From a virus (lineage: Duplodnaviria > Caudoviricetes), in the IMG/VR virus record IMGVR_UViG_3300048576_000053, positions 1 through 30,296 of that record: a stretch of DNA of 30,296 nt. One strand, given 5' to 3'. The position numbers were made by a program, and so were the translations under genes. Under the pieces are notes generated by a model that searched no databases, was not told where the DNA came from, and worked only from the letters and a program-made list of their open reading frames with translations. Positions 173 to 19,521 of this stretch are shown piece by piece (positions within the stretch are counted from its first letter, which is position 1; each line of letters opens with the position of its first letter).

Positions 173-192
173 TGGTCATGTTTTTGGTCATG
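173..192 (+). repeat. Direct repeat TGGTCATG x2, candidate integrase arm-type sites
   Basis: TGGTCATG at 173-180 and 185-192, between the tRNA and the integrase start. Confidence 0.45.
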
Positions 193-219
193 CTTTTTCA
201 ACTTTTGGGGAGTATGGAG

Positions 220-2662: not shown

Positions 2663-3175
2663 TTATGAAGTGAAAATTTCCTGAATGGCCGATTCAATTT
2701 CGGGAATGGATTTCTTTTGTAATTGCAGAGCCGTTTTCTGCCAGTCTCGATTTTCAAAGATTAACCTTTCTGCAGTACGACGAATTAGCAAACCTTTCAA
2801 TGTATTTCCGGCCGCATCTTTAGTATAAAGCAACATTTTACTTTTATAAAGGTTCCTATCCTGATTAAGATAGTCTGCCAGTTTCGGGAAGCTGCGCAAA
2901 TTGTAGGCTTGTGAGATTACACATACAGATTCATTATCATTCAGATCCGTCGATACATTATCATTAGCCCTTTTCAAAGCATTCTGAATATCGACTTCAA
3001 AACGTGCGTCAATTTCTGCATCTGTAATTTTCAGGCCGGGTGTTACATTTGAAGTTGAGCCAAGTCCGATAGTCCAAACGCCGCCGGAATCTTTATAGGC
3101 TTCATGCTTACGCCCTTCAAAGAAAGAAATGAATTTATTTACTTTCTGTATTATTTGTGGATTCAATATTATCAT
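2663..3175 (-). CDS. Endolysin, GH24 phage lysozyme
   Basis: FEGRKHEAYKDSGGVWTIGLG shows the E-x8-D-x5-T triad; C-terminal LKGLLIRRTAERLIF. Confidence 0.92.
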   Translation of the reverse strand: MIILNPQIIQKVNKFISFFEGRKHEAYKDSGGVWTIGLGSTSNVTPGLKITDAEIDARFEVDIQNALKRANDNVSTDLNDNESVCVISQAYNLRSFPKLADYLNQDRNLYKSKMLLYTKDAAGNTLKGLLIRRTAERLIFENRDWQKTALQLQKKSIPEIESAIQEIFTS

Positions 3176-3461
3176 TTTTCCGTAGCCCTTTTATGTCTTT
3201 GTACTTATCAATTCCTTTTTCTGCGACTGCTGTTATTCCAAACAACCCTGCTATGCAATCGAAACCGATTGAAATGTTTTCTAAGTTGTTTGAAATAAAA
3301 TCTGCCCCGGCTCCGACTGCTGTATGTTTAGGAATTAACCTGGCAAGCAATCCGGCGCCGATTGCGATAAAGCGTTTTTTCCCTTTAAGGAACTCCCAAG
3401 CGTCGGAAAATATCTCTTTCGATTTATTCCCGACGTTTGAGAGGAAAGAATTATTCTCCAC
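3135..3461 (-). CDS. Putative holin / lysis membrane protein
   Basis: Two hydrophobic segments, GKKR motif and charged C-terminus; adjacent to the endolysin. Confidence 0.55.
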   Translation of the reverse strand: MENNSFLSNVGNKSKEIFSDAWEFLKGKKRFIAIGAGLLARLIPKHTAVGAGADFISNNLENISIGFDCIAGLFGITAVAEKGIDKYKDIKGLRKNDNIESTNNTESK

Positions 3462-3894
3462 TTGCGATATCCTGAATGAGGTCTTTGATTTCGTTAATTA
3501 TCGTAATGGCTCTCTTAACATATCTGAATAATGAAGCTTTATCGATAAGGTAAAGAGACGCACTTAATACATCGGTGATCTGCTGTATCTCAGCGTCGGT
3601 GATTTTGTCCAATACTTCTTTCGGAATTTCTTTAAGAGCGTTTATTACCTTCGGTAATTTGAAACCCTCTGGTAAAAATTCCAGAAATTCAGCAGTAGTA
3701 ATTTTAGAACCGCCTGCCGAATCTGTTGCGGTTACTTTATATATATCGTTTGTGGCCGATACTACAAAGCCCACAACCGTGCAAAGATTTTCTACTGTTT
3801 TTGTATCTTCAACCATTTTTAACTCCGTTGGTGTTTTATGTTTAGTTAATTCAACATTTGAAAGGTCTAATCCTTTCGGTTTTAATTCGTCCAT
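3451..3894 (-). CDS. Hypothetical protein in the lysis region
   Basis: 147-aa ORF with GGAGG RBS, overlapping the next gene. Confidence 0.7.
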   Translation of the reverse strand: MDELKPKGLDLSNVELTKHKTPTELKMVEDTKTVENLCTVVGFVVSATNDIYKVTATDSAGGSKITTAEFLEFLPEGFKLPKVINALKEIPKEVLDKITDAEIQQITDVLSASLYLIDKASLFRYVKRAITIINEIKDLIQDIASGE

Positions 3895-3897
3895 TTA

Positions 3898-4176
3898 TCA
3901 TCCCTCCGTGCTGTGTTGAAATTGACAATCTTTTTTCTTAACAAATTTATCTATCATTAAAAGCTGTAATTCATTGTGCCGCCTTTCCGCGTTTAATTCG
4001 TTTTGACTTATTTCCGCGCGTACTCTCTGAAATTCTTTTATGTAATTCTTTTCGATTCCATCGCTTCGCGCGTCCGCATTTTCAACGCGTTTATCGAGCC
4101 ATGTAATTTTATTTTTAATGAACCATCCGAGTGCGCCGACTATAACGCCAGTACCTGCAAGAAGAATATTTTCCAT
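3898..4176 (-). CDS. Small membrane protein (N-terminal TM + coiled coil), holin/antiholin-like
   Basis: ILLAGTGVIVGALGWFI followed by a heptad-rich charged region. Confidence 0.6.
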   Translation of the reverse strand: MENILLAGTGVIVGALGWFIKNKITWLDKRVENADARSDGIEKNYIKEFQRVRAEISQNELNAERRHNELQLLMIDKFVKKKDCQFQHSTEG

Positions 4177-4179: not shown

Positions 4180-4371
4180 TTATTGCTCCGCTTTATTATC
4201 ATTTTCAGCAATCCAGTTGTTTGCTATTATTTGAATGTCGCTTAATAATTCTTCCTGACTCATATTTAATTGTTCATCTGTCAAAGGGTTCAAATATTCC
4301 CCATATTTTTCATGTATTATCTGATAGCATTTTTTGCCAGTAGCCGGGTCTGTAATTATGCTAATAGTCAT
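4180..4371 (-). CDS. Small acidic hypothetical protein after the fibre (possible fibre chaperone)
   Basis: 63 aa, TAATG-coupled to the fibre stop, GGAGG RBS. Confidence 0.6.
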   Translation of the reverse strand: MTISIITDPATGKKCYQIIHEKYGEYLNPLTDEQLNMSQEELLSDIQIIANNWIAENDNKAEQ

Positions 4372-7300
4372 TATTGTATCTCCTCCACTATCATTTCGGT
4401 ACCGCTGTAAACAGTAGTCGTTCCGGCGGCCTCTTTCCTTGTTTGCACTGCAATCGTCCCCGCGGTCGTACTCATATAAACGGTTATATCAGATATAAAA
4501 TATGCCTGTTGATTTGCGCTGGAATAGACAATGGTCGTATTGCCGACATAGTGTTCCTGATTGACGGTTTCCATTTTCCAAGTTGTAAACGATGACATTG
4601 TTGCATCTGTCGGCAAAGACATGAATAATGTTGCAGAACCTCCGGAATTATCGTTCTTCATTGAACCTTTCATTATGATATGATATTTCTTACTGGCCGC
4701 TGCCGAAAACGAAAGGCCGGTTACGGTTACATAATCAGCGGAAGTAGTAGTGAAATTTGATGTCCTGCGGTATGAAGTAGGGCCGGTATAAGCTTTGGGT
4801 GATATAAGTTGGAAATTTGTGCCGTCATAAATAACACTGATAAGCTGACCTGCAATTATATCTCCAGTCTGTAAATCAACATTATAATTTTTCTTTACAT
4901 ATTTGGGGCCGACAGAATTAACGTTCAATGTAACTGCATCGGTATTGGCAACATTTGCCAGAAAGTGTATAACCATACCAGTCGTATAAGATGTAATTGC
5001 AGGTGATAATGTAATAGCAAAGGCATCTGTTGAACCGGACGCGGCGGCATAAACTAAACTGCCGCTTTGTACTTTTGCCTCTGTTACTCCACCGCTACTC
5101 GAAGATGTTCCCCACGTTCCATCGCCTCTAAGCGTTTTTAACGAATCTCCGGGCAGTTTAGGAAGTAAACCGTGCATCGATGTCGAAGCGTTTTTGGTAG
5201 TAATATCAGTAAAAGTAATGTCGCTTTCCTGAATGTCCGCTCCGGCTGTAACTAAGCCTTTAGAATCGTATGTAATTTTAGTTTTAGTAGCTCCGGTTAT
5301 CGCTGTATTTTTAGCCGTGTAATATCCGTCTGCCGTTGCTTTAGAAATTGCGCTTGCTTCAATACCTGATAATTTCGTTTGCTCCGTTGCAGTAAAAGCC
5401 TTATTAGTTGTACCGCTTGCAATATCGTCCTGTGTTAAAGTTATATCCGTGCTTAATGCCTTACTGTTAATCGTCCGGGTATTCGGTACTGCCGTGAAAC
5501 CAAGCGCGTCCTGTTTATTACCCCATGTAGTTTTTTCAGTATCAGTAACAAATCTATAGCTTGCTGTCTGGGTAACTTTTGACGCATCGAGAGAGCTTGA
5601 GGCAGTAAGATAATTTGCTAAAGCATGATTACCCCATGAATAAGCCGCGTTTAATTTTCCTAACAGATTAAGAGTAAAAGCAGTATTCAATGAATCAATA
5701 ATTGATTTGTTTGAATGTGAATGCAAACTCGAATATGCAAGGTCGTAATTTGTTTTTAACGCCGTTGTAAACGATTCCGATGTATTATCTAAAATAGTTT
5801 TATTACTATGTGAATGAATAGCGTTGAAAGCTGAATTTATTTTGCCCTTTAGCGAAAGAGTGAACGCAACATCTGTTGAGTCCAATAATGCTTTATTTGA
5901 ATGAGTGTGAGTATTGGTATAAGCCGTGCCGAAATTAGATAGCTGTGTACTTGTCGGTATAGCGTAACCGGACGTAAGCGATAAGATACCAGTTGAATTA
6001 CTGTAATCTATACCTGTAATGCTTGAACTGATTGCCGCCCTTGAAAGTGCATCTGAATAATATTTGTTAGTTGTACCCTGTGAAAGATTATCTGTATTCT
6101 TAGCCGCAAACTTCGTATTGAAGCCCGTCGGAGTTAAATATTTTAAGCTATCCGCAATATTTAATTTTGCAGTTAATACATTGTAAAGGTCTGTCTGATC
6201 TGATAAACTCCCCTGCAATGTTCCCCAAGACGGCGCTCCGCTTGATACCGGCTTTAATTCAAATACCCAAACGGAATCCCTCCATACAGGTATATAGCCA
6301 TTTGTAGGTGTGGCATGACTCCATTTGTGCCCCTGCAATAGATTTGCGTTCCACTGTGCTGTAGTATTGCCGACCTGCGCGGCTGTTACTGCATGAGGAT
6401 TAGAAGTGCTATTCACATGAGTGCTTAAATCCGTACTGTTGGCTTTATTATTTAATAAAGCATTTGTTTCACTTTTGGAATAAGTAAGTGATTTGTTATA
6501 AACAGAATCTTTATTAGCCGGAATAAAACCGATTGTATTTTCTTTTCCGCTTAATAAATTATTGATTTCTGTTTTCGTATAAAGAGACGACTTCAAATAA
6601 ACGGAATCTAATTGAGCCGGTGTATAGCTTAAAAGATTTTGTTTTGCGTTCAATAAATTATTTACTGCTGCTTTGGTGTAAACATTTGCCGTGTCCGCTT
6701 TCAAGGCAGCCCTGGCATTTGTATAATATTTATTGCCGGTTCCCTCTGTTAAATTATCACTTGTTTTGCTGCTGAAATCAGTATTAAAGAGAGAGCTTGA
6801 ATAGTATTTATTTGTGGCTCCCTGAGTGATATTATCAGATGTTTTAAGGCTTAACCTTGAATCAAAGGACGTATTGAAGTTAGCGGAATTGAATTTCAAT
6901 CCAAATAAAGAGTCCGCTGTGATTTTAGTATAAACTCCGAGTTGCCCGGCAGTAACGTTGTGAGGGTTTGAAATATTGCTAATATGGTTATCGTAACCGC
7001 TTTTAATAGAGGTTGTAAACGCCTCTGTAATTAAATCCAACGTGCTTTTATTGCTATGAGAATGAGCATTACTAAAAGCGGATGCTAAATTGCTTATTTG
7101 AGTATCGGTTACAAAGCGGTATGAACTCGATTGAGTAATATTAGCCGGATTTGTAGCATCAATATTCGGCACGTTGCTTAAACCGATTTGAGTTTTATTT
7201 ACATTATGAGGGTTTGAAAAGTCCCGCACATGTGCGTTTACAGTTCCGGTATCTGCTTTAAGAGCCGATCTGTTTGAAGTATAGAATAAATTGTTTAATC

Positions 7301-7970
7301 CCTCTGATATGTTATCAGATGTTTTAAGGCTTAAACGGCTGTCAAAAGATGAATTGAAATCCGCACTATTTAATTTGAGTGCTAATAAAGAATCGAGCTT
7401 GTGCTCCGATACTTTAGCTGTATCAAGTTTAGCATTAAGCATGCCGTCAATCAGTAGCTTGCTGTAAAGCGATTCACCTGTAAAAGTATCGCCGCTTCTT
7501 TTTACGAAAAATCCATTAGTAATTTTTGAAATATCGATTGCAATAAAACGGGTTGCATTTGTCGGCAAATCTATTCCGTCGAATGGAGTCCTTATGTCTC
7601 CGATAATATTAAAGCTTCCTGTAAAGATTGTAAGAACATGGCTTGTATCGGCCTGTGTTTCGATGTCATAGAAGTAACTACCGGCTGTCAAGTCCCAAGT
7701 GTCATACTTTGTTAAGCTTACGCTTAATGTAGTCTTACCAGATGAATAAACTGCCGTTATTGTATTATCGGTATTCGATTTATCGATAAGCCTATTTGAA
7801 GATTCCAAGCGGTCTTTTTTAACAGTGAAATAAATATTGCCAGTAGAATAATCCCCGGCAGCTGTAAAAGTTAAAGTCTTTGAATCCCCCCGATATACAG
7901 TAATATTATTCGATACCTGACCGAATAAATTAGCTGTTATAAAAAGTAATATTAAAATATATTTATTCAT
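4371..7970 (-). CDS. Long repeat-rich tail fibre / receptor-binding protein with signal-peptide-like N-terminus
   Basis: Start at ATG 7970 after AAAGGG. BppU-like N-terminal domain (ITVYRGDS..YFYDIE); NPHxV, HxHSNK and TxDNxxxGxxNKYY repeats; KITYDSKGLVTAG motif; beta-rich C-terminal domains. Lies between tail tip and lysis genes. Confidence 0.8.
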   Translation of the reverse strand: MNKYILILLFITANLFGQVSNNITVYRGDSKTLTFTAAGDYSTGNIYFTVKKDRLESSNRLIDKSNTDNTITAVYSSGKTTLSVSLTKYDTWDLTAGSYFYDIETQADTSHVLTIFTGSFNIIGDIRTPFDGIDLPTNATRFIAIDISKITNGFFVKRSGDTFTGESLYSKLLIDGMLNAKLDTAKVSEHKLDSLLALKLNSADFNSSFDSRLSLKTSDNISEGLNNLFYTSNRSALKADTGTVNAHVRDFSNPHNVNKTQIGLSNVPNIDATNPANITQSSSYRFVTDTQISNLASAFSNAHSHSNKSTLDLITEAFTTSIKSGYDNHISNISNPHNVTAGQLGVYTKITADSLFGLKFNSANFNTSFDSRLSLKTSDNITQGATNKYYSSSLFNTDFSSKTSDNLTEGTGNKYYTNARAALKADTANVYTKAAVNNLLNAKQNLLSYTPAQLDSVYLKSSLYTKTEINNLLSGKENTIGFIPANKDSVYNKSLTYSKSETNALLNNKANSTDLSTHVNSTSNPHAVTAAQVGNTTAQWNANLLQGHKWSHATPTNGYIPVWRDSVWVFELKPVSSGAPSWGTLQGSLSDQTDLYNVLTAKLNIADSLKYLTPTGFNTKFAAKNTDNLSQGTTNKYYSDALSRAAISSSITGIDYSNSTGILSLTSGYAIPTSTQLSNFGTAYTNTHTHSNKALLDSTDVAFTLSLKGKINSAFNAIHSHSNKTILDNTSESFTTALKTNYDLAYSSLHSHSNKSIIDSLNTAFTLNLLGKLNAAYSWGNHALANYLTASSSLDASKVTQTASYRFVTDTEKTTWGNKQDALGFTAVPNTRTINSKALSTDITLTQDDIASGTTNKAFTATEQTKLSGIEASAISKATADGYYTAKNTAITGATKTKITYDSKGLVTAGADIQESDITFTDITTKNASTSMHGLLPKLPGDSLKTLRGDGTWGTSSSSGGVTEAKVQSGSLVYAAASGSTDAFAITLSPAITSYTTGMVIHFLANVANTDAVTLNVNSVGPKYVKKNYNVDLQTGDIIAGQLISVIYDGTNFQLISPKAYTGPTSYRRTSNFTTTSADYVTVTGLSFSAAASKKYHIIMKGSMKNDNSGGSATLFMSLPTDATMSSFTTWKMETVNQEHYVGNTTIVYSSANQQAYFISDITVYMSTTAGTIAVQTRKEAAGTTTVYSGTEMIVEEIQ
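6832..7334. repeat. 23-bp exact direct repeat within the fibre gene, 480 bp apart
   Basis: TTATCAGATGTTTTAAGGCTTAA at 6832-6854 and 7312-7334, within the duplicated FDSRLSLKTSDNI segments. Confidence 0.85.
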
Positions 7971-7983
7971 TTGTTGCCCTTTC

Positions 7984-8427
7984 TTAAATTCGTGGAATGT
8001 CGATTGCATCTAAAGAAATCATTTCGATAATGACGATATCGCGCGTGTCGTTTTGTTTTAACGGCCTAATAATTACGTCGGTAATATAGAATCGCGCGTT
8101 TGTTGCTGTGGCGCCGTAAACTTTTATAAACCCTGCATCTGTATGCAGTTTGAAATAAACCTTTTTCTTATAGAACGAACTAAGTAAACTTTCATAAGCC
8201 GTTTTATCTGCCGGACTTGTCATTTTGTGTAAATTGATAAGTATTTCAACATCGGCAAAATTCCCTCTATCGACGACCTCCCGCCTTGCGGATATTTCAT
8301 CTTCATGTATAAGGTCGCGCGCGTTTTTTTCACATTTATTAACGATTGAATAGTAAAGTGTTAAGCCCGTCGAGGTACTAATGTTTTGTATGTATGGTAA
8401 ACCAGTTCCTGTTATGCTTGTTTTCAT
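7984..8427 (-). CDS. Putative tail tip protein (possibly Dit-like)
   Basis: 147-aa beta-rich ORF; assigned by synteny only. Confidence 0.5.
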   Translation of the reverse strand: MKTSITGTGLPYIQNISTSTGLTLYYSIVNKCEKNARDLIHEDEISARREVVDRGNFADVEILINLHKMTSPADKTAYESLLSSFYKKKVYFKLHTDAGFIKVYGATATNARFYITDVIIRPLKQNDTRDIVIIEMISLDAIDIPRI

Positions 8428-9723
8428 TTAAGCCCCTAAGTTTAACGCTTCAATAATGCTTTTATTATTCGCCCACTGTTTTTTTAGTGAAACGATTTGA
8501 TATTTATAACCGCCGTATGTAAAACATTTTTTGAATGAATAATTTATTCCGGTTACTTCGAATGAATCGATACGCGTTGCTTTGACATCTGATTTATGGC
8601 TGTACCAAGAACCCGCGCACATACCGCCGGTTGTTGCTGTTTCATCGGCACTGGCGTCATATACGCCATAAATATCATAGTAAACACTGTTTAAGTAAGC
8701 ATATAGATTTGTCTTGCCCTCCTCTAAAGGGTTGAATTCCCAACATGGTAGCAATAACGTTTTTTCAATTTTTCGGTCGTCGTTTACATTATATATTCCT
8801 GCCTCAAAATCATTTACTATATGCGTTTTATCATGTAATAGGACCCAATTTATTAAATTCGTTTTGTAATTATATTTTGGCTTTGAAACCAATCCAAGCG
8901 TTTGAATATTCGACGTGTCGTAATAAAATAATTTTCTAAAAAATGGTTTTCTGTCGGCTGTGAAACCGGCATAACAGCCATATTCGAACGCTAATTGTCT
9001 CAACAAATCGCCGACGTTATTAAACCCAAGAGTGTTATTAAAATACAGGCTGTCGATTCTTGCGTACAATGAACCAAACGCAATCGAATAAACTTTATCC
9101 GTTAAAAGATTCGGATTTATCCCGTAAAAAGTCCAGTCCTGTTGAACGTCAATGTCATTCGCAGTTAATGAACTATTTACGACTTTGAAAATGTCGAGTA
9201 AAATTCTATCCCGTAAAGGGTAATAAGTTCCGCGTGAATAACCGAAGGGATTTATCGCGTTATAATAAGCGTCGTTTACAGATGATGGATCAAGATCAAT
9301 TATGCGCGAATCGTAAAGCATCTTTTTATTTATTGCTTCGATTTCTGTAATCGCGACAAGTGCTAAAGTCTGTTTCTCATCATCATAAGTAATCGAATCT
9401 TCTTGAAGTGCTCCGGTGAATTCGATTACACCGTTTAATTTTACTTGCAATAGGAATTGGATATTTGCAAAAGATGAACTAAAAAATATATTTTTTAAGA
9501 AAGTACCTGATTCGCCGAACTTGATTGAATATTTTGCGGGGACAAGTAACAAATCATCAAGGGATAAACTTTGTTCTAATTCTCCATAACTAATAATCGC
9601 AATCCCCTGCGCGCTAAATGTCGTTATTATCGGGCTTGTATCGTTCCGATTTGTTGTCAAAATAACTTCGATGTAATCAGATTCGTTCACATAAACATTC
9701 CCAGAGCTTATGACATAACTCAT
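8428..9723 (-). CDS. Putative tail tip / hub protein
   Basis: 431 aa, ATGA-coupled to the tape measure gene; assigned by synteny and beta-rich N-terminus. Confidence 0.55.
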   Translation of the reverse strand: MSYVISSGNVYVNESDYIEVILTTNRNDTSPIITTFSAQGIAIISYGELEQSLSLDDLLLVPAKYSIKFGESGTFLKNIFFSSSFANIQFLLQVKLNGVIEFTGALQEDSITYDDEKQTLALVAITEIEAINKKMLYDSRIIDLDPSSVNDAYYNAINPFGYSRGTYYPLRDRILLDIFKVVNSSLTANDIDVQQDWTFYGINPNLLTDKVYSIAFGSLYARIDSLYFNNTLGFNNVGDLLRQLAFEYGCYAGFTADRKPFFRKLFYYDTSNIQTLGLVSKPKYNYKTNLINWVLLHDKTHIVNDFEAGIYNVNDDRKIEKTLLLPCWEFNPLEEGKTNLYAYLNSVYYDIYGVYDASADETATTGGMCAGSWYSHKSDVKATRIDSFEVTGINYSFKKCFTYGGYKYQIVSLKKQWANNKSIIEALNLGA

Positions 9724-11981
9724 CTTGACCGTCCATATTGTAATGAAGCTTTTTTATTCGCTAACATTATTGAATCGTTCTTTATTTCACCGATAACATT
9801 CAAATCATTATTGCCTTGTGCGCGCGCTCCGTTTAATATTACGTTTGTGTTTAATGTCTCTACTCTGCTAATCAAGCGTGTTAATAATTTTGAATCGTTT
9901 CCGCTTTGCCCTGCTGGTGTAACCGAAACGTGTTCCCCCGATTCAACCATTAAAGGGAATGAATCATTGGGGAAACCGGATGGAACAGTAAACGAACCGC
10001 CTCCCGCCATTCTCATTACTCCGGAGCCAGTGCCAATAAAGCTTCCGCCGTTGTGCGCTCCAATAGCACTTGCAATGCCACCCGTGCCGATATCTAAGAG
10101 CGCCATTATCCCTTTAAATAATAAAGCCTGTGCTGTCATAGCAACTAATTGAATCGCCAGTTGCGAAAACACTTTATCTAATCTTTCGCCCGACATTATC
10201 CCACTTGTTAAACCACTTGAAATAGTTTGTGCGAAATTTTCTGCGCTCAATGTTGCTTCTTTCGTTTCTTCGGTTTCTTTCTTAAATAATTGCGTGTTCG
10301 ATAATTCCGTTGGTGCGTCATACGCGCCAATAGGTGTATATCCAGTGCCGTAATCTCCGTTTAATCCTTTATCGTAACCTTTCGCTTTCCCCTTTATCCC
10401 GCCCGCTAAAACTGCATATTGTTGACTGGCATATTTGTTGCTTTTGCTATTCGGATTGTTAGCGTCTGTCTCTCCAAAATATTTAGCGTAAGCCTCCGCT
10501 TTCTTTTTTATTCTATCCATTTGACGGCTGAAATAATACTCGTCTTTAACGTCGTAATTATCAAGTGCCGTTTGTTTCTCTGTTTCAGCTTTTTCGCGTT
10601 CCTGTTTTGCCTTTTCCGCGCGAGCTTTTTGTTCTTCCTCACTTAAATGCGAACCGCTCGAGCCACTTAAAGTTGAATTAACATCGCCTTGTATCTTTTT
10701 ATTTGCGAACGCTCTTTTATTCTCCGCGCTCAGTTGGCTATTAAATTCATTTTCAGCTTTTGAATTATGTTGCATTGGTTCACTTAAATTCTTGACGCGG
10801 GCTTTCTCATTATCTTCCTCCGCTTGTGTTAGCAATGCGATTGCACCGACGACGCCGAGTATAACGCTTGAAACCGTCGCTATAGAGGCAAGTCCCGCCT
10901 TAAAAGAAGCAAAGAATCCCGTTACTGCGGGCGTTGCTGTGGCTGTGGCAACTCCGACGCTTTCGACGGCTGCGGCGACTGTTGTTAGTTCGGATAATTT
11001 CCTTAATTGAAGCAGCTGCAAAATTGTTGGCATTAGGCCTTCAATTGTATTGCCGATATATTGCAAGCCACCAACAAAAGTTCTGAATGAAGTATCGTTT
11101 TTCATTTCATTTAAGACAGGACGCAAAGCGTTATTTAGCAATCTTCCGAATTCTATTTCAGTATTTTTAACTGCGACATCTAAACTCTCTAATGAATCGG
11201 CGTTATCCATTTGTTTCTTTCGAACGTCATCCATTGTGATACCGGTTATTTTTAGAATCGCTTCGAGCCTAATCTCTTTTTGTGTTTCGGCATCTAACTT
11301 GTCGATTGTAGCACCGTATTGAGAGGCTAAACTTGAAACAACTTGCTTATATTCTTTTGTCTCAATTCCTAAACCCTTAACAGCTTTCGTGCTGCCTTCG
11401 GAGGCGGCAACAATTTTCTGAAAGTTATCAATAGTTGTCCCTCCGAAATCGTCGGCCGCATTTTCAGCGATTGAAAAAAACAATGGTTGTTTCTTTAATG
11501 ATATTCCTAATTCGTCGGCTTGATTTGACAATTTTAATAAATCGCTGTCGCTCGTTGCGCGGGCCGTTGCAATCCGCATATCTTCTAATTCTTCTTTGGT
11601 TGCCTTTGATGCTGCGCGGAGGTTATCAAAATCAGCACTGGCTTTCATAGCCGTAAAGCTAAAAGATAATGCTTTTAAACCCGACCAAGTTGTAATTAAA
11701 CCATTAAGCCCGCTCTTAACGGATTCGATTGAACGGTTTATTCCTGTTTCATCGAGCTTTACCCCCTTTAATGATTTGTTGAGGTCATCTTTTATTTGTT
11801 GCGCGCCTTTTTTTGCATCGTCGCCCGATAAAGTAGGTTTTATTTTTGCGGAACTATCTTCAATATTCTTAACAGCTTTTTTAACTTCACTTTCTATTTT
11901 TGATTTGTCCGAACTTATTTTATCGGTTTTTAAGCCGACATCGATATAAGCGGAACCAATTTTAACACCGTCTTTAGCCAT
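9720..11981 (-). CDS. Tail tape measure protein
   Basis: Ala/Lys/Gly-rich helical 753 aa; IGSAYIDV N-terminus, hydrophobic central segments, AGGG..DS..ESGEHV C-terminal motif; follows the chaperones. Confidence 0.9.
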   Translation of the reverse strand: MAKDGVKIGSAYIDVGLKTDKISSDKSKIESEVKKAVKNIEDSSAKIKPTLSGDDAKKGAQQIKDDLNKSLKGVKLDETGINRSIESVKSGLNGLITTWSGLKALSFSFTAMKASADFDNLRAASKATKEELEDMRIATARATSDSDLLKLSNQADELGISLKKQPLFFSIAENAADDFGGTTIDNFQKIVAASEGSTKAVKGLGIETKEYKQVVSSLASQYGATIDKLDAETQKEIRLEAILKITGITMDDVRKKQMDNADSLESLDVAVKNTEIEFGRLLNNALRPVLNEMKNDTSFRTFVGGLQYIGNTIEGLMPTILQLLQLRKLSELTTVAAAVESVGVATATATPAVTGFFASFKAGLASIATVSSVILGVVGAIALLTQAEEDNEKARVKNLSEPMQHNSKAENEFNSQLSAENKRAFANKKIQGDVNSTLSGSSGSHLSEEEQKARAEKAKQEREKAETEKQTALDNYDVKDEYYFSRQMDRIKKKAEAYAKYFGETDANNPNSKSNKYASQQYAVLAGGIKGKAKGYDKGLNGDYGTGYTPIGAYDAPTELSNTQLFKKETEETKEATLSAENFAQTISSGLTSGIMSGERLDKVFSQLAIQLVAMTAQALLFKGIMALLDIGTGGIASAIGAHNGGSFIGTGSGVMRMAGGGSFTVPSGFPNDSFPLMVESGEHVSVTPAGQSGNDSKLLTRLISRVETLNTNVILNGARAQGNNDLNVIGEIKNDSIMLANKKASLQYGRSR

Positions 11982-11987
11982 TATTTT

Positions 11988-12185
11988 TTATTCCTTTATT
12001 CCATGAAGTTCTAAAAGTTCTTCTTTCGCTTCCTCGTATATTTCGGATTCGCTTTGCATTTCAAATTCACCACTTAATTCAAACGCTGTGTATTTCAAAC
12101 AATACTGATAAGCATTTCGAAACTGTGTAATCGGTAAACTTTTAATGTATTCAATCGAATATCCTGTGCTTATCGCGACAACCAT
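11988..12185 (-). CDS. Tail assembly chaperone, T portion (probably expressed by -1 frameshift)
   Basis: Frame is open from the A9 run at 12227-12235 through MVVAIS; no clear RBS of its own. Confidence 0.7.
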   Translation of the reverse strand: MVVAISTGYSIEYIKSLPITQFRNAYQYCLKYTAFELSGEFEMQSESEIYEEAKEELLELHGIKE

Positions 12186-12202
12186 TATTAGCGCGGAGTA
12201 GC

Positions 12203-12553
12203 TTAAAGACTTTCCTCCGGTTCCACTTTTTTTTTATTACCTTCTAAGTCTTCGACTATTAACGAAACAAACGATTCAATTTGTTGCTGTGTCAATCTCT
12301 TAAACAGATAATTTGTTTTGAACATTTTTTTTAGTTTCCATTTCTTTAGAATCTGATAATATTTTAGCCTCGCAATGTTAGGCTGTAAAGCATCGTGGAT
12401 TATTAGTAAACCTAAATAAGCATTTGATATCGTTGTTTTTTCTTGCTTCTTAGCATATTCAGAAAAAGCGTAAACCTGTTCAAGTGTTCGTTCAAACAGA
12501 AATACGCGTTCACCGAAAAAAACAATTTCCTTTGTCTGTCTCTCAGAGGTCAT
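12203..12553 (-). CDS. Tail assembly chaperone G
   Basis: Between tail tube and tape measure genes; ends EGNKKKVEPEESL over a slippery run. Confidence 0.75.
   Translation of the reverse strand: MTSERQTKEIVFFGERVFLFERTLEQVYAFSEYAKKQEKTTISNAYLGLLIIHDALQPNIARLKYYQILKKWKLKKMFKTNYLFKRLTQQQIESFVSLIVEDLEGNKKKVEPEESL
12226..12235 (-). other. Programmed -1 ribosomal frameshift site (AAA AAA AAA G)
   Basis: -1 frame reads AGT GGA ACC GGA GGA AAG TCT TTA AGC TAC TCC GCG CTA ATA ATG GTT, in frame with 11988..12185. Confidence 0.78.
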
Positions 12554-12555
12554 AA

Positions 12556-13302
12556 TTAAGCCTTTAGTGTTTCGGCGATTGCTCCCGAAATCTTGAATGT
12601 ATATGAAAATGTAATTTCGCCTTTAATGCTTCCAGATATTTTTTTTGACATTAAAACGGCTGTTCCTGTGATTGCTTTGTCGGTTGTTGTACCGTCGTCA
12701 TAGCACAGAATAACAGCGCCCGATGTTGCACAGGCTAACCCGACGCTTGTTTCTGTGACAGCGCCTTGAAACGAACCGGTTACCGATACTTTGTTCCCCG
12801 ATTTCATTTCTGTTTTTACTTTTAATGTTTCAGGTCTGAATGTCCCCGCTACTGAAACACCTGTCGCGATTGCCAACGTTCCCGATGCATTTACATTCCG
12901 AGCGATTTCCGCAACTGAACTCAGCTGAAAATAATCGAACGATAATTTCCTTTCAGCGCGTCCGACATCGAATTCCGTCCCGTCACCCGAGGTCCCGCCG
13001 TCTGTTAAATCAACTTCATCGAAAGAAACGTCATAGTTGAAATCTGTTAATTTATAAAGAATTGAATTGTGTGTGTAAGTGATCGCTTTACCGGTTAATT
13101 TATCCCCGCCCGCGTTTTTCAATATACCTTGGATAGTAATTGAGCGCGTCGCGCGTGATGTAACCGTTTCCGTTCCGTCGCCAGTAGTAGCATTATCGGT
13201 TACGTCGATAACATCGAAGGATTCGTCAAAGTCTGTTCCCTTCAAAGGGACATCCGCACCGTTAAAGGAAAACTTTGTTAATTTACCTAAGGTTTTTCCC
13301 AT
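12556..13302 (-). CDS. Major tail tube protein with internal duplication
   Basis: Two copies of SFDxxDxTDxxTxGDGTE and two C-terminal GAxxET strands; lies after the tail terminator. Confidence 0.82.
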   Translation of the reverse strand: MGKTLGKLTKFSFNGADVPLKGTDFDESFDVIDVTDNATTGDGTETVTSRATRSITIQGILKNAGGDKLTGKAITYTHNSILYKLTDFNYDVSFDEVDLTDGGTSGDGTEFDVGRAERKLSFDYFQLSSVAEIARNVNASGTLAIATGVSVAGTFRPETLKVKTEMKSGNKVSVTGSFQGAVTETSVGLACATSGAVILCYDDGTTTDKAITGTAVLMSKKISGSIKGEITFSYTFKISGAIAETLKA

Positions 13303-13308
13303 TATTTT

Positions 13309-13731
13309 TTATACTCCTATTTGTATTTGTATTTGTATGCAATAATCAATGGCAAGCATCCAATTATCTAAATCACTTTTGATAATCATATCCTTACCTG
13401 CAATTCTATCAACTGAAATTATTTCGAAACTTTCAGCTGTTAATTCTTTTTCACATTCATCAAAATTTTTGTCTAAGCAATCGGCAATATGTGAAATCCT
13501 CAAAGTGCTTTTTGAATCGTCATATAAAACGAATGAAACAATCGGGCTTTCATATTTTGCACCGGAATCCCTATCAAGTGAGTTACCGACAAACTTGAAA
13601 ACGATATAAGGATAAACAAGCGTATCGGAGGGATTGCTAACAAAATAAAGCCGATCTTCAATGAACGCTTTCAAATCGGTATCGGCATTTAACCGATTAA
13701 AAATTATTTCTTTTAATTCGTTACTATCCAT
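13309..13731 (-). CDS. Tail terminator / tail completion protein (DUF3168-like)
   Basis: IFNRLNADTDLKAFIEDRLY..YPYIVF pattern; acidic; synteny. Confidence 0.8.
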   Translation of the reverse strand: MDSNELKEIIFNRLNADTDLKAFIEDRLYFVSNPSDTLVYPYIVFKFVGNSLDRDSGAKYESPIVSFVLYDDSKSTLRISHIADCLDKNFDECEKELTAESFEIISVDRIAGKDMIIKSDLDNWMLAIDYCIQIQIQIGV

Positions 13732-14200
13732 TAAGCAGACTCATTATATTATCTTGATTGTTATAAACTGCCGGACGTAAATAAGGGCGTTCCGGGATAT
13801 CAACAGACTTAAGCAATATGAACATCGGAGTAACTTTCTTCTTACTGGTCTTACAGAGTAAAGCCTTTCCATTTTTTTTAATGAGAACTAAATCAGGAAA
13901 ATCTTTCGGCTCTTTCCCTTCAGCTGCTTTGTTAATAGGGACTGCTAAAGATTTCGCTTTACTGGGTTTTATTTCACCGCCTAATTCCTGAATTGCGGCA
14001 TAAATCGTATTAGCAGAAATGCGGACACTATTACCTATTACTTTATGAGTGATATTGCCTAATAACTGGCCATGCCTTGAACGCTTGCTAATATTATTCT
14101 TAGCCTCTCCCTCTATATACGCTCCGATAACTTCCAATTTATCTCGCATAATGGAGTCTGCATGTTTAATAAGCTTTCCAGTGTCAATATTTACGTTCAT
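13724..14200 (-). CDS. HK97 gp10-like / virion morphogenesis neck protein
   Basis: GQLLGNITH, YAAIQELGG and IPERPYLRPA motifs. Confidence 0.82.
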   Translation of the reverse strand: MNVNIDTGKLIKHADSIMRDKLEVIGAYIEGEAKNNISKRSRHGQLLGNITHKVIGNSVRISANTIYAAIQELGGEIKPSKAKSLAVPINKAAEGKEPKDFPDLVLIKKNGKALLCKTSKKKVTPMFILLKSVDIPERPYLRPAVYNNQDNIMSLLNG

Positions 14201-14508
14201 ATTTTTTCAACGCTTATTTCTAAATGGCTCTGTCGGACCGGGACGATATTGTTTATTTTGTATATGTAACCCGTTTTTAATTCTTTTATCCTGTCATTAT
14301 CAGATATGGTAATTGGTTCGCAAAATAATGTTGTAATATTCCGGCGGCCGGAACCGTCGAATTGAATCATTCTTTCATTGCTTATAACCTGAAGATCGCC
14401 TTTGAATGAAATATCTTCATTGAACGTTTCCAAGGAGCCGCCTACTCCGTCCGGGGTGCTTACACACTTAAGCAGTTTGAAATCACTATTTAATAAATCG
14501 CTTATCAT
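14197..14508 (-). CDS. Head closure protein (SPP1 gp16-like)
   Basis: PDGVGG, DRIK..YKINNI..HLEI pattern; synteny. Confidence 0.8.
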   Translation of the reverse strand: MISDLLNSDFKLLKCVSTPDGVGGSLETFNEDISFKGDLQVISNERMIQFDGSGRRNITTLFCEPITISDNDRIKELKTGYIYKINNIVPVRQSHLEISVEKI

Positions 14509-14834
14509 ATAGCTGTTATTACCGGCTTAATTGTAAACAGGTCTAAAACATCTGTTATGTTTTTAGGATAACCATAATTAGCTTTAGCTGTATAGCTAAC
14601 AGAGTAATTCCCTAACGATTCAGATGCCACGCCTTTTTTATTGGCAGGTTCCGCTTCAAATTTGATAATATTTGCAAGTGCTAACCTTAATGAAGCAGGT
14701 AAATTATCGTCTGTATATTCAGTATTACAGTAAGTGTTGATAATCTCGATGCCGACTGGTATCATTGCCGTTATGAATGCATCTTCGCTATCTGGCATTT
14801 TTGCCAATATCTTAATTTCATCAGGACTAATCAT
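14505..14834 (-). CDS. Head-tail connector/adaptor (SPP1 gp15 / HK97 gp6-like)
   Basis: INTYCN, GVASESLGNYSVSY motif. Confidence 0.85.
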   Translation of the reverse strand: MISPDEIKILAKMPDSEDAFITAMIPVGIEIINTYCNTEYTDDNLPASLRLALANIIKFEAEPANKKGVASESLGNYSVSYTAKANYGYPKNITDVLDLFTIKPVITAI

Positions 14835-15001
14835 TTTGCTTTACCTTTTTTGTTTTTCTTCTTAAAGATCGTCTTGATAGATTCGGGAGCTGCTTCTTTT
14901 GCTTCTTCAGATGTGGTTTCCTTTTGTTTACCCTGGCAATTATTAAGATGAATCGGTAATACTGTATCTGAATACTCACATCCGCATTTTTCACATTTCA
15001 T
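14831..15001 (-). CDS. 56-aa C2HC zinc-finger-like protein (not in the ORF track)
   Basis: Hand translation MKCEKCGCEYSDTVLPIHLNNCQGKQKETTSEEAKEAAPESIKTIFKKKNKKGKAK; GGAGAG RBS; ATGA overlap with the next gene. Confidence 0.75.
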   Translation of the reverse strand: MKCEKCGCEYSDTVLPIHLNNCQGKQKETTSEEAKEAAPESIKTIFKKKNKKGKAK

Positions 15002-15021
15002 AAATCACTCTCCATTTTATT

Positions 15022-15047
15022 AAAGGGAGCTTTTTAGGCTCCCCTTT
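15022..15047 (-). terminator. Hairpin downstream of the capsid gene
   Basis: Minus strand AAAGGGGAGC-CTAAAAA-GCTCCCTTT. Confidence 0.7.
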
Positions 15048-15082
15048 ATTACACTAACTAATCAACAAGGAGAAATCTTTTG

Positions 15083-16333
15083 TTATCCTAAAATTCTTGT
15101 TGCTAATTCAGGAAATACAGCCTTAACGCCGTAAAGGGTATCAATCGAAAGAATTTCTTTCTTTGTAGTAATATCATATCCGGCAGTTACTCTTAATGCT
15201 ATCCCGTTGTAATTAACGGTATAGGACTGTGCGGCGCCAAGAGGCGCTTCAAGAGGTCTTGAAACGAATGCAAAAGCATTTTTAATAAATGCTAAGTTCG
15301 CAACGTGCGCACCGGCTGTTTTATCAGGGAATGTAACAACGTCGTCAACAGCATGAGCTGCTAAGACTTTTGTACTTGTGGTAATTGAAACATCGCCACT
15401 TACTGCTGCGGTATCGGAGGCAGCTGCATAGTAATATTTCTTGCCGCCTGAAGTAATATAGAAAATATCACCGGCTTTAATTGTTTCAGTACCGGCACCG
15501 CCTTTCAATATAATTGTATTTGAATCTTTAACGGCAAGTGTCTTTACTTTAGGAGTAGTTACAGCAGTGAAAGTACCGGCTGTATGAGTCTTTACATTCT
15601 GGCTCATATAGTTTTCAAGTCCGAATACTCTACCGATCGAACCCTCTCTAAGTGCCTGTGTTGAACCTGATTTTTCAGCATTTACCAAAGAGGTTAGCAC
15701 CTGAAATTTTGCCTGTGCATTGGGATCGAATACCGCAACGCGTCCGGTATTGGGAACTTGATTGTTGTTTAACATTTTAGCGGCATCTGCAAAATCGTCC
15801 AAAGCATCGGGAGTTGTTCCGGATGCACCAACAAAGTAAGGAACTGCCTTATAGCATTCACTCATAATGTCTGAATCTATCTTTTGCGAAATAGCCATCA
15901 TTGCCGGGTCAAGTATCTGCTGATTGAAGTCGTCAATGTTTAATGCACGTTCTTTGGAAGTCCATTCAACAGAGACATCTGCAATATGGCTTAATGATAC
16001 CGATACTTCGCCTTCAGTTATGCCTTGCAAGTTAATCGAGCTACTAAATTCATCCGCAACAAATACAGAGGGCTTCTTTACTCTGATTGTATCGCCCTGT
16101 TTCTGGAATGTATTTGAGAAATCCCCATAGACAAGTGCTTTCATTACAAGGAGATTCTGTAAGCGGAGCAAAGCCTCTCTTGCAATGACTGAAGTTGTTA
16201 AAAATACGTTAGCGACGATAACGCCGCCTTTAATTGTGGCCGGGTGGAACAACAGCGCCGCTGTTAATAAAAGCATGAATCCGGCAATCGATGCTAATAT
16301 CTGGTGTTCTTTGAAAAATGTTTTTATTTTCAT
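15083..16333 (-). CDS. Major capsid protein, P22 coat-like, with a 40-aa hydrophobic leader
   Basis: ANVFLTTSVIAREAL, QGDTIRVKKP, ALREGSIGRVFGLENYMSQN, an inserted beta domain and SIDTLYGVKAVFPELATRI. AAAGGA RBS before ATG 16333. Confidence 0.9.
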   Translation of the reverse strand: MKIKTFFKEHQILASIAGFMLLLTAALLFHPATIKGGVIVANVFLTTSVIAREALLRLQNLLVMKALVYGDFSNTFQKQGDTIRVKKPSVFVADEFSSSINLQGITEGEVSVSLSHIADVSVEWTSKERALNIDDFNQQILDPAMMAISQKIDSDIMSECYKAVPYFVGASGTTPDALDDFADAAKMLNNNQVPNTGRVAVFDPNAQAKFQVLTSLVNAEKSGSTQALREGSIGRVFGLENYMSQNVKTHTAGTFTAVTTPKVKTLAVKDSNTIILKGGAGTETIKAGDIFYITSGGKKYYYAAASDTAAVSGDVSITTSTKVLAAHAVDDVVTFPDKTAGAHVANLAFIKNAFAFVSRPLEAPLGAAQSYTVNYNGIALRVTAGYDITTKKEILSIDTLYGVKAVFPELATRILG

Positions 16334-16358: not shown

Positions 16359-16946
16359 TTATTTTTTGGTACGCGCGGCGAAATATTCAGCATCCGACAT
16401 TTGTGAATAATCCTCGGCAGGGTTTGAATTGCCTGTATTAGGTTCGCGTCCACCTGCCTTAAACTTTTCGTCAACAAGCACTTTAAGAGTATTATTAAAC
16501 TCTGTCTCCAAAAGTGCTATGTTGTTTGAAGTGCTTTCTTCATCTTCGCCGACAAATCTTTCAACTAATTTTAGCGGTAGCTTCTTTTCGGTAGCGATGG
16601 ATATTGCTTTATTGAGCAAGTCCTTTTTCTTATTGGCAGTTTCGAGAGCTGCGATCTTTTCGTCCTGTAAACGGAGTCTTTTCTGCTCTTCAGTTTCGGC
16701 AGGGAATTTAATCTTGATAGCGTCCTCAATTAACCCCGGCATTGTTTTTTCCTTAAAGGTAGTAATGCCTTTTGTAACTGCCGCATCATTCAAACTTTGT
16801 AAATACTTTTTGCCAGTTTCATCTTTTTCCAAATAGTCCTTAACACTCTCAGGTGTGAGCGTCTTAAGTGCTTTTAAGAAAGTGATTTCGTCAGCTGTTA
16901 AAGCTTCATTCTTTTCAAGCTTCGCTAAAATCTTTTGTGAATCCAT
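16359..16946 (-). CDS. Capsid scaffolding protein (DUF4355-like)
   Basis: Charged helical protein; FPAETEEQKR, EKKLP..GEDEEST, MSDAEYFAAR C-terminus; directly upstream of the coat gene. Confidence 0.85.
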   Translation of the reverse strand: MDSQKILAKLEKNEALTADEITFLKALKTLTPESVKDYLEKDETGKKYLQSLNDAAVTKGITTFKEKTMPGLIEDAIKIKFPAETEEQKRLRLQDEKIAALETANKKKDLLNKAISIATEKKLPLKLVERFVGEDEESTSNNIALLETEFNNTLKVLVDEKFKAGGREPNTGNSNPAEDYSQMSDAEYFAARTKK

Positions 16947-17064: not shown

Positions 17065-17991
17065 TTATTTGAACTTGAGATTAAGCCATTCATCAAATTC
17101 AGGAGTAGCAGCACTGCCTTTGGCTTTGTTTGGGAATGTTTTTATTACACTTCGAGTTGTACAACGGCATTCGATATCTTCCTCCGGCAGTCCAGATAAA
17201 CGCGGTCCTTTAGTCTTAGCGCCATTCGGTAAAGTGAAATAGCCGTCGGCATCTGCTTCCTGTCCGTTCATTTTAGCGTGGTCATGCCTTTCTTTACCGT
17301 CCATGATTGTAGTCCACACTTCAACCATTTCAATGCCTAATCTATCAGCTGCGCTTTTTGCTTTATCGTAGCTTGTTTTATTAGCCAGTGATAACGCTCT
17401 ATTCGATTCAGTCCTTACAATTCTTTGTGCGCGTCCTAAAGAAATATCGACCTTATCGCTTAAAGCATGAGCCGTTTTGGAATATCCATCCCCTTTAATC
17501 AGGCCGGAGGTAATCGTTTGATTAACGTCCTGTGTAAGTTTAGTACCCCAAGCCTTTGAACGATCAATCCATGTAATCTTATCGAGTGGGTTCAATACGC
17601 TTGCATCGATTGCCGTTTTATTCAATTCAGTAAAACCTAACTTAGCTCCGATACCGGACTCATAAGCGTATGCAGATCTGTAATATGATTTCTCAAATAC
17701 TGTTTTAATCGCTTGCCGGGTAACTTTGATATTCTCTCCAGTAACGACTTTAATGGCTTGTGCAATTTCAGCCTCTAAACCTGTTAAACGATTATAGCGG
17801 TTAGCGTCTGCATAGCTCATTGTATCGCCGTACTTCTCATATAAGGCAGATACTTCAGCGCGGATATCATTAAGCACGGTTTTATAATTCAGGATTATCT
17901 GCTTTTCGGAATCAGCTAAAACTTTACGCGCTTCTTTATTGCTTAATTTAAGAAGCTCTGCTATTCTGCGGTTAATCTGTGTTATCGGCAT
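17065..17991 (-). CDS. Minor head protein (SPP1 gp7 / Mu F-like)
   Basis: RAQRIVRTESNRA, W..DGKERHDHAKMNGQ, EEDIECRC. Confidence 0.9.
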   Translation of the reverse strand: MPITQINRRIAELLKLSNKEARKVLADSEKQIILNYKTVLNDIRAEVSALYEKYGDTMSYADANRYNRLTGLEAEIAQAIKVVTGENIKVTRQAIKTVFEKSYYRSAYAYESGIGAKLGFTELNKTAIDASVLNPLDKITWIDRSKAWGTKLTQDVNQTITSGLIKGDGYSKTAHALSDKVDISLGRAQRIVRTESNRALSLANKTSYDKAKSAADRLGIEMVEVWTTIMDGKERHDHAKMNGQEADADGYFTLPNGAKTKGPRLSGLPEEDIECRCTTRSVIKTFPNKAKGSAATPEFDEWLNLKFK

Positions 17992-19354
17992 TGCCAGGTT
18001 CCAGATATGGATTCAAAGTGTCAGCTAATTCAGCTTTCATTTTATCGAGTTCTTCCTGTACGTTTGTAATGAAAGGCAGTAGGCTTAAGCGTGTTTCGTC
18101 TGAAATGTTCCCCTTGAATTTCATTTGTACATCTGCCAAATAGCCCAGGTCAATCGGCAGGTTTCTTGTAAATTGCTGTGCAATATCGGTGTATTCTACT
18201 TTTACATTACGTTTATTCCATGAGGAACAAACAATCCGATACATCTCGATATTTGCTTTTGAGAACTTAACTTCTTTAATGATTGCATCGTTCTCCATTG
18301 ATACGAGTTTCCATTTACGAGACTCCCCGGACATAGCGGAGCCTGAAAATTGTTCATCTCTCATATCGACCGCTTTGGTAAATTTGTAAATGTTTTCGTT
18401 CAATGTTTTCTTATGATTCTCAATCATTTGCACAGCATTGTCAAGCTGCTTTGTAATAAATTCAATTTTGTTCCCGTTAGGCATGAAGAAAGCTCCTGTC
18501 TGTCTGGCCTGTTGTATCGTTTCCCTTGTAGGTGCGGTATCGCCACTAAAGCCAAGATACGCCAGTCTGAATTCTTCTAATTCGTTTTGGATATCAGATA
18601 AATTACGGTCGTAAGCGTCAATCAATGTTTCGGCTTTCTCGAAATCGCCTTGTAGCATATCGTTATTCATATACCTGATTACAGGAACGTACTCAAATAA
18701 ATGAGGCTGTGGGTTTACCTTTTCGCTTGCGTCAAGGATATAATTGCCGGAATCGTCCTGAATGTAATATGTTACATTCTGCTTATCGTACCATTCAACT
18801 CTTGTCTTTTTCTTAGTCGCACCGCTTGCATCAATGCACTCAAGTTCATAATAAATCAAAGCATAATTAAGCTTATCGAGTATCTGGTCATAAACGAATA
18901 TCACTTCCCACGGGTTTATACTCATTACGCTTTCTTTCCCCTCTGTATCGATATAACAGAGCCTCGCACCGTAACCGCATATAGAAGCGAACCGGCCTGT
19001 GATTGCGTCCAAGTCCCTTATGTAGTTCCTCTGCATAAAGCCATTCAATTCATCAACCATATTGTCGGGGTATCTATCGGAGGGAAGAGAATATTTTACA
19101 GGATTGCCAAATATATATCCAATCTTTTCATCAACAATATCCCCTCTATAATCATTTTTAAGCTTGTTATTGATCTTCGCAGGGTCTTCAAAACTTCGAT
19201 GTTCAATCGGTACACGGCCTTTATAAGCGTGGAATAGTTCTATTGTTTTGTCTCGTAATCTCCGATGGTCTGCTATGAGGTCTTTTATGATTTGAGATGT
19301 GATTTGCCCGGACTGCCTTTTAATTAACTCATTGACTTGTGCGCTTGTGTACAT
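17972..19354 (-). CDS. Portal protein, SPP1 gp6-like
   Basis: NNKLKNDY..IVD..GYIFGNPV, LIDAYD, FSGSAMSGESRKWK, FTRNLP. Start moved to ATG 19354 after AAAGGA. Confidence 0.93.
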   Translation of the reverse strand: MYTSAQVNELIKRQSGQITSQIIKDLIADHRRLRDKTIELFHAYKGRVPIEHRSFEDPAKINNKLKNDYRGDIVDEKIGYIFGNPVKYSLPSDRYPDNMVDELNGFMQRNYIRDLDAITGRFASICGYGARLCYIDTEGKESVMSINPWEVIFVYDQILDKLNYALIYYELECIDASGATKKKTRVEWYDKQNVTYYIQDDSGNYILDASEKVNPQPHLFEYVPVIRYMNNDMLQGDFEKAETLIDAYDRNLSDIQNELEEFRLAYLGFSGDTAPTRETIQQARQTGAFFMPNGNKIEFITKQLDNAVQMIENHKKTLNENIYKFTKAVDMRDEQFSGSAMSGESRKWKLVSMENDAIIKEVKFSKANIEMYRIVCSSWNKRNVKVEYTDIAQQFTRNLPIDLGYLADVQMKFKGNISDETRLSLLPFITNVQEELDKMKAELADTLNPYLEPGNADNTD

Positions 19355-19378
19355 GATGAATCCTTTTAATTGTCGGTT

Positions 19379-19416
19379 CAAAAGTAATTTTATGACATTG
19401 GGAAATAAACCTAATT
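19379..19416 (-). promoter_or_regulatory. Late promoter A (AATTAGGT-N22-TACTTTTG)
   Basis: Perfect TAnnTTTG -7 element 22 nt from the shared box; upstream of the portal gene. Confidence 0.75.
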
Positions 19417-19521
19417 CTTTAATAGGCTTCTTTTGAGGGGTATGGATAAGCAGTTTGCAAGGTGGTTGGTATAAATGGAGGTTTAACAAATTTAGAGGGC
19501 TTAAAAGCGATTTATGGAAGT

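Follow-up and report, generated by a model that had tools for sequence, protein, structure and literature searches.

The DNA analysed here, a virus record of 30,296 bases (IMGVR_UViG_3300048576_000053) whose whole length we call the window, reads as the genome of a temperate siphovirus in which two structural proteins, the major capsid (coat) protein and the single tail fibre, begin with hydrophobic N-terminal leaders. A sequence-only reading had joined these leaders and the lack of a recognisable spanin into one envelope-targeted morphogenesis system. Comparison with relatives argues very strongly that the two leaders are instead independent and not one system, because they vary independently among related phages. 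The minus strand carries terminase, SPP1-like portal, MuF, scaffold, coat, neck, tube, tape-measure, hub, Dit, one fibre and lysis cassette genes, and the left end, with tRNA-Arg and integrase, is likely the attachment end of a temperate phage. The features are as follows (lengths in amino acids, aa; bases of assignment in brackets).

40..1185, plus strand: tRNA-Arg(CCT), then tyrosine integrase, at the left end
2663..4176, minus strand: lysis cassette, with a 92-aa holin-like gene with one transmembrane segment, a 147-aa gene of a viral family, a 108-aa gene and a lysozyme
4371..7550, minus strand: fibre shaft repeats and C-terminal domains (PHROG tail-fibre matches)
7551..7919, minus strand: fibre Ig-like N-terminal domain (BppU_N or tail-collar-like fold)
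7920..7970, minus strand: fibre signal peptide of Sec/signal peptidase I (SPI) type, 17 aa, Gln at +1 (heuristic and host-style comparison)
7984..11981, minus strand: tape measure (753 aa), hub-like (431 aa) and Dit-like (147 aa) genes, leaderless (position and homologues; Pfam and PHROG family scans gave no match)
12203..15001, minus strand: neck, terminator, tube and chaperone genes, leaderless (PHROG; tube and chaperone by position and likeness to relatives)
15083..16213, minus strand: mature-type major capsid protein, P22/Sf6 HK97 fold (Pfam PF11651, Foldseek)
16214..16333, minus strand: coat leader, 40 aa (sequence and structure model)
16359..16946, minus strand: scaffolding protein, leaderless (PF14265, PHROG 172)
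17065..17991, minus strand: MuF/gp7-like minor head protein (PF04233, PHROG 115)
17972..19489, minus strand: SPP1-like portal, leaderless, likely start near 19354 (PF05133)
19522..21275, minus strand: terminase large and small subunits (family matches)

The fibre, of 1,199 aa, starts at 7970 within a longest open reading frame (ORF) of 8009-4371, at an ATG that is preceded by GAAAGGG and yields MNKYILILLFITANLFG/Q, the slash marking the predicted cut. These 17 residues comprise a basic N-region, a hydrophobic core and a small residue at -1 (LFG/Q), against a host median of 20 aa by the same heuristic. All signal calls come from a heuristic rule of our own and not from SignalP; an SPI-type leader with Gln at +1 is termed SPI-Q. 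The fibre is the sole SPI-Q call among the 48 listed minus-strand ORFs of the window, and the heuristic calls no leader on the window ORFs for portal, scaffold, neck, tube, tape measure, hub and Dit. As to the host, coat matches begin at residue 1-6 in 5 of the 80 genome loci kept (Ignavibacteriales, Ignavibacteria, Melioribacteraceae, Bacteroidota and one Acidobacteriota bin), and the remaining 75, nearly all from Bacillota groups, align only from residue 27 or later; since the full-length matches lie mainly in Ignavibacteria- or Bacteroidota-type loci, we infer that the host is likely a member of the Ignavibacteria. Among Ignavibacteria host genes the SPI-Q rule was positive for 47 of 273, as against 4 of 1330 genes from Bacillota-type control loci, and Ignavibacterium album has a reported Q-value of 77% (PMC5837995). 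Bacteroidota substrates of this Sec/SPI Q-rule have the same signal form and Gln at +1, and the available parts of the reports describe them for cellular proteins (PMC5837995, PMC10653852). Altogether, the fibre is probably exported to the periplasm.

The contrast that the sequence-only reading had drawn, with leaders on coat and fibre and none on portal, scaffold, neck or tube, is real, with the qualification that the coat leader fails the signal-peptide heuristic and is transmembrane-like instead. The coat ORF (16333-15083, minus strand; 416 aa) aligns to Pfam P22_CoatProtein (PF11651; profile positions 2-423, E 5e-50) and to PHROG 283 from residue 41 onward in both cases. Its structure model (pLDDT, a per-residue confidence score, of 89) matches the Sf6/P22 coat in Foldseek (E 2e-21, template modelling (TM) score about 0.65), an HK97 fold with insertion domain, so that the window coat shares with P22 and Sf6 its Pfam family, fold and separate scaffold. 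P22-type coats are not known to have a propeptide. The 40-aa leader is translated together with the coat, because codon 40 is GTC and not a start, and a purine-rich ribosome-binding site (AAAGGA) precedes the upstream ATG; the same two features rule out a mis-called coat start. A conserved dual start was likewise discarded: a start is possible at -1 in some leaders (ATG in L008, L009 and L087; TTG in L006), but the window, L001, L085, L086 and L167 have none. Within the leader lie a basic amphipathic helix (residues 3-9), a hydrophobic helix of 18 residues (11-28) and a flexible linker, and the structure model accordingly shows the 18-residue hydrophobic helix as a separate element, preceded by a short helix and followed by a low-confidence linker that leads into the P22/Sf6 fold.

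Among the 46 best coat homologues (query included), 27 have a leader, 16 are leaderless and three are truncated, and a leader occurs in only 1 of the 74 homologues ranked 47-120. Leaderless coats were checked in DNA at five loci, each with a stop codon 3-5 codons upstream; the other leaderless calls rest on database gene predictions. The leaders have a basic N-end, 20-35 uncharged residues, a conserved G-V-I-[LMV] directly before the ancestral start and G at -4 in 22 of 27 cases, and nonsynonymous change (pN) was lower than synonymous change (pS) in all 21 leader pairs, with synonymous sites near saturation. In a quick tree of 64 coats we counted 13 leader changes, at least 4 of them forced by starred branches. 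The leader therefore appears to be conserved as a hydrophobic helix where present, yet repeatedly gained or lost. Most leaders are 34-40 aa long and end G-V-I-[LMV]/A, without a conserved SPI site, A-x-A or Gln at +1, and the window leader has twice the host signal length; a host signal peptide of Q-rule Sec/SPI type is ruled out for the coat by this length, by the lack of a conserved cleavage site and by the lack of Gln. Nor is the leader tied to scaffold type, as L163, L165, L168 and L238 have the same scaffold family and are leaderless. A distant coat, P0116, has a 47-aa hydrophobic leader of different sequence, likely an independent gain. Two further loci, L357 (at 6031) and L316 (at 1253), with leaderless coats, carry between MuF and scaffold a gene of about 300 aa with an N-terminal hydrophobic segment, and in L002 (2932-7685) a type III restriction-modification-like pair is inserted at that position.

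Whether the two leaders are coupled was examined in a census of relatives, gathered by coat, tape-measure end and fibre domain through word-indexed searches. We scored by eye, for coat leader and signal-bearing tail genes, 25 related phages that look to belong to the Fibrobacterota-Chlorobiota-Bacteroidota (FCB) group; duplicates or near copies (e.g. G252, L002, L007, L084), loci with no identified coat (L276, L277, L313, L332, G237) or no tail end (L008, L163, L165, L168) and seemingly unrelated tape-measure matches were set aside. Both leaders occur in one phage, the one studied here; seven have the coat leader only, eight a tail signal only and nine neither (odds ratio 0.16, Fisher p=0.18, n=25). 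Independent variation of the two leaders across relatives, which the sequence-only reading had itself named as refuting its proposal, is the pattern seen. In the coat-only phages G009 and G005 C7, the fibres are signal-less through to the prophage end. For the leaderless coats, 12 of the 15 scanned match major-head PHROGs, and the other three, together with the unscanned coat of G340, were assigned by position. The coat is also leaderless in L165, the nearest relative in head and tail genes, with 42-73% identity from terminase to tail chaperone and 40% in the scaffold. The window genome is mosaic: its tail is nearest to that of leaderless L165, and its lysis genes are common to leaderless G046. 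Tail proteins that bear signals are common among these phages, and the switch between signal and no signal recurs in a second tail family, with a signal in L266 and none in L001, G005, G395 and G340. As a separate observation, G231, G324, G266 and G076 are integrase-bearing elements with a tape-measure gene and no head or tail genes nearby, possibly satellites or remnants.

The lysis cassette does lack a recognisable spanin, as had been noted. On either strand of the window, in a record without part of the early region, there is no ORF of at least 35 aa with a lipobox signal; we found no homologue of the relatives' u-spanin-like genes there and recognised no spanin, whether o-spanin, u-spanin or i-spanin paired with an o-spanin. 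A survey of 677 phage genomes likewise recognised no spanin in 91 of them (13%; PMC6139136), but here many close relatives carry a u-spanin-like gene, with an N-terminal lipobox or transmembrane segment and a C-terminal transmembrane segment. These genes occur in none of the 9 phages with tail signals and in 12 of the 16 without (p=0.0005, uncorrected for kinship or host), a count in which the lysis cassette was seen only partly in L272, L291 and L331, and G259 and L309 have another spanin candidate with an N-terminal transmembrane segment. A link between exported fibres and the lack of a u-spanin is therefore an uncorrected lead. It is also what would be expected, together with the presence of all three features in this genome, if coat leader, fibre signal and missing spanin had evolved and acted together as one dedicated system. 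Coat leaders, however, accompany u-spanin-like genes in 7 of 8 leader phages, only 1 of the 25 phages has both leaders, the leaders differ in kind, in length and in cleavage features, and the genome is a mosaic; we regard a single system as very improbable.

Outer-membrane disruption may fall instead to the 147-aa and 108-aa genes (window 3135-3894), which are shared with spanin-less G046 and are candidate disruptors. Likely homologues of the 147-aa gene occur in G046, L266 and L309, all phages with signal-bearing fibres (L266 and L309 were picked by eye), and the 108-aa gene has a likely homologue in G046. The 147-aa family is widespread among viruses, with Atlas matches to unnamed viral clusters; searches of viral contigs found no further members. 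Elsewhere, L006:13075-13539 and its homologues form an unannotated u-spanin-like family (lipobox and C-terminal transmembrane segment) with no PHROG match, which sits in a lysis cassette placed between neck genes.

Several features point to the fibre as a virion component. It is the only fibre-like gene between hub/Dit and lysis genes, has PHROG tail-fibre matches and looks like a siphovirus side fibre in its place after hub/Dit, its fibre repeats and its N-terminal domain of tail-docking type. This Ig-like domain resembles phage BppU_N and minor tail domains in structure, as well as T5/DT57C tail-tip chains (7qg9_L, 8hqz; E about 3e-6, TM score 0.42-0.45), the T5 chain being what we take to be the side-fibre collar p132. 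The T5/DT57C and BppU_N matches are the top structural scores, though modest and near those of generic Ig matches, and a PDB sequence search with the domain profile gave no match below E 0.4. T5/DT57C tail-tip and BppU_N proteins are signal-less, unlike the window fibre. Homologues of the domain come both with divergent SPI-Q signals (P0123, P0124, P0125) and without a signal (G003, G259, G252, L276, P0126). Cultured phages share with the window fibre only short repeat matches (10 records), and their coats are below 60% identity.

By analogy, Cellulophaga phage phi18:3 (KC821620) offers a precedent for signal-bearing proteins within virions: its gp085-gp087 carry SPI-type leaders with Gln at +1, like the window fibre, and are annotated as structural by tandem mass spectrometry (MS/MS); in the part of the record examined, 12 proteins have that annotation and these are 3 of them. 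Phage phi18:3 belongs to another virus family, however, its proteins showed no homology to the window fibre, and the record notes are silent on leaders. An exported fibre could instead stay out of the virion, masking the receptor or decorating the cell surface while the hub protein serves adsorption. Export does separate the fibre from cytoplasmic tails; the gene may be dispensable, as a tail-end fibre is missing altogether from G007 and G010; and Q-rule genes of phages have been read as host-membrane modifiers (PMC10367356). The late-operon fibre position, the tail-collar-like domain and the signal-less homologues in the same slot speak for a virion part, as do the SPI-Q proteins in phi18:3 virions, and we consider a non-virion fibre improbable. 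Fibres and decoration proteins can join finished particles, as with the long fibres, Soc and Hoc of T4 and gpD of lambda, which fits late attachment of the fibre to virions after the holin opens the inner membrane, a reading that seems to us somewhat favoured.

Signals were also seen on other kinds of gene. Small signal-bearing genes, mostly SPI-Q, directly follow the coat, in the decoration position, at L331:3967-4431, L269:3540-3971, L280:3021-4225, L361:9241-9705 and L283:3781-4254; several have D-S/T-hydrophobic motifs, and none of the five scanned has a PHROG match. SPI-Q signals are found on central-fibre-like proteins akin to Bacteroides phage tail fibres (L255:15782-19013 in G259, which has a Mu-like head, and L253:16190-19285 in G046), and a small coiled-coil neighbour has one in G259 and possibly in G046.

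Passage through the periplasm would expose the fibre to general O-glycosylation, in which D-S/T-hydrophobic motifs are glycosylated only in noncytoplasmic Bacteroidota proteins; the available part of that report describes cellular proteins and mentions neither phages nor Ignavibacteria (PMC12871550). The window fibre has no Cys and 11 such motifs over its full length. Counting D-S/T-A/I/L/V/M/T in tail-end windows picked by eye, 21 signal-bearing tail proteins hold 103 motifs against 56.8 +/- 7.1 expected (none of 150 shuffles as high), and the count for 34 signal-less tail clusters is 45, with 57.3 expected; controls with E-, N- and reversed motifs were flat, and the two groups differ in motif content (Mann-Whitney p=2e-4). 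Enrichment in a motif used only in the periplasm is hard to square with leaders that are tolerated passengers on proteins that fold in the cytoplasm before export. That both leaders go unused would fit the close relatives lacking each of them and the possible -1 starts of L008, L009, L087 (ATG) and L006 (TTG), but the window, L001, L085, L086 and L167 have no such start, and charge and hydrophobicity are maintained with pN<pS; this explanation is quite improbable.

The coat itself likely stays cytoplasmic, because scaffold and portal are signal-less and belong to identical families in leader and leaderless phages, and because leader coats gain no glycosylation motifs (2.7 vs 2.5 sites). HK97-fold shells have their N-terminus pointing inward. 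Together with the basic N-end, the transmembrane-length helix, the mostly neutral or acidic C-flank and the lack of a conserved SPI site, this orientation would suit an N-in/C-out anchor. The coat would then be translocated and build its shell on the periplasmic side of the inner membrane, around scaffold still in the cytoplasm, so that the head would contain an internal membrane. The shared portal and scaffold families, the frequent gain and loss of the leader, the unchanged motif content and a portal without a membrane segment make this scarcely credible.

A close published parallel for the coat lies in Nixviridae prophages of Porphyromonas gingivalis, for which signal peptides have been noted on the major capsid proteins, alongside five Q-rule genes in Bacteroidota phages (PMC10367356). 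In the available part of that report the capsids are about 670 aa, two of seven table rows are SignalP positive and a phage protease is proposed to make the cut; the window coat has instead a transmembrane-length leader, a P22-type coat and a separate scaffold, and whereas the authors leave the Q-rule genes without an assigned function, the Q-rule protein of the window is the fibre (PMC10367356). A literature search, chiefly at title level and outside most subscription journals, found no description of exported tail fibres or transmembrane-length coat leaders.

Taken together, the explanation we prefer on balance is one of two independent N-terminal additions, a signal that sends the fibre to Sec export and a coat leader serving as an optional tether to the membrane. 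The fibre, with its signal of host form and Gln at +1, would be exported through SecYEG, cut by signal peptidase I, capped as pyroglutamate and, less surely, O-glycosylated by the host at D-S/T-hydrophobic motifs; once the holin opens the inner membrane it would dock on the tail through its Ig-like collar domain, joining finished particles from the periplasm at lysis. The coat, with its translated and repeatedly gained or lost hydrophobic helix, would fold in the cytoplasm on a scaffold and portal that have no leader, kept meanwhile at the inner membrane by its own leader, and this leader might then be cut near G-V-I-L/A-N or be retained inside the shell. T4 proheads, which are membrane-bound, offer a comparison. 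Concentration of subunits at the membrane by such a tether is a tentative idea that falls slightly short of an even chance, and it is the weakest step of the explanation. Periplasmic passage of the fibre, one of the mechanisms first put forward, is thus well supported, and a membrane tether for heads is plausible if unproven, while the proposed linkage of the two falls away.

A number of points weigh against this explanation. The picture of fibre and coat is drawn from sequence, with heuristic signal calls. In the census, the coat-only phages G007 and G010 have no tail-end fibre, and three other coat-only loci end after the first tail-end gene; the eight tail-only phages, whose coats are leaderless, are unaffected by such gaps. 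Under the positive-inside rule, the charge pattern of the coat leader predicts that the coat is translocated, a point that a cytoplasmic tether leaves unexplained, and a Pfam scan of the window gave no protease domain, hence no prohead protease identified to remove the leader; the MuF gene also matches a PHROG labelled maturation protease, but its best matches are minor head/MuF. On glycosylation, the window fibre is only mildly enriched (11 vs 7.6 motifs, p=0.15; D-S alone, chosen after the fact, 9 vs 3.6, p=0.007), the control from host genes is weak (secreted proteins 1.44, cytoplasmic ones 1.32, from 400 kb of three Ignavibacteria genomes, not the host itself), and P0124, P0125 and phi18:3 gp085-087 show no motif excess, so that glycosylation cannot be the general reason for export. 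It is one possible benefit of export and not its general cause, and for the window fibre itself the chances of its occurring look close to balanced, leaning a little against.

Other parts of the window bear on none of these questions. Two moron genes 3' of the integrase (1264-2426, plus strand), are possible defence cargo: one product, of 142 aa, weakly matches PADLOC Drt1b (E 1e-4), and the other is a caspase-like peptidase C14 of 238 aa. The minus strand at 26342-28531 encodes a 729-aa fusion of helicase-like and DNA methyltransferase parts adjoining a 389-aa helicase.

More broadly, phages of Ignavibacteria and related FCB hosts might divide virion assembly between two compartments, making heads and tails in the cytoplasm and fibres and decorations in the periplasm with host capping and glycosylation, and might have dropped the u-spanin so that particles gain parts before the outer membrane breaks; as a general scheme we hold this to be rather unlikely. 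Its extreme form, in which the coat anchor also wraps inner membrane inside an HK97-fold shell, is far less likely still. The independence of the coat leader narrows it to an optional head-assembly trait. The parts of tailed phages are taken to assemble wholly in the cytoplasm, and late addition of a fibre from the periplasm would depart from that textbook view. The pairs of signal-bearing and signal-less homologues are natural controls, and the cultured phi18:3 makes the idea testable. If it is true, passage of a host-recognition fibre through Sec would make infectivity depend on host secretion, on pyroglutamate capping and possibly on host glycans, and its export would couple assembly to the order of the lysis steps.

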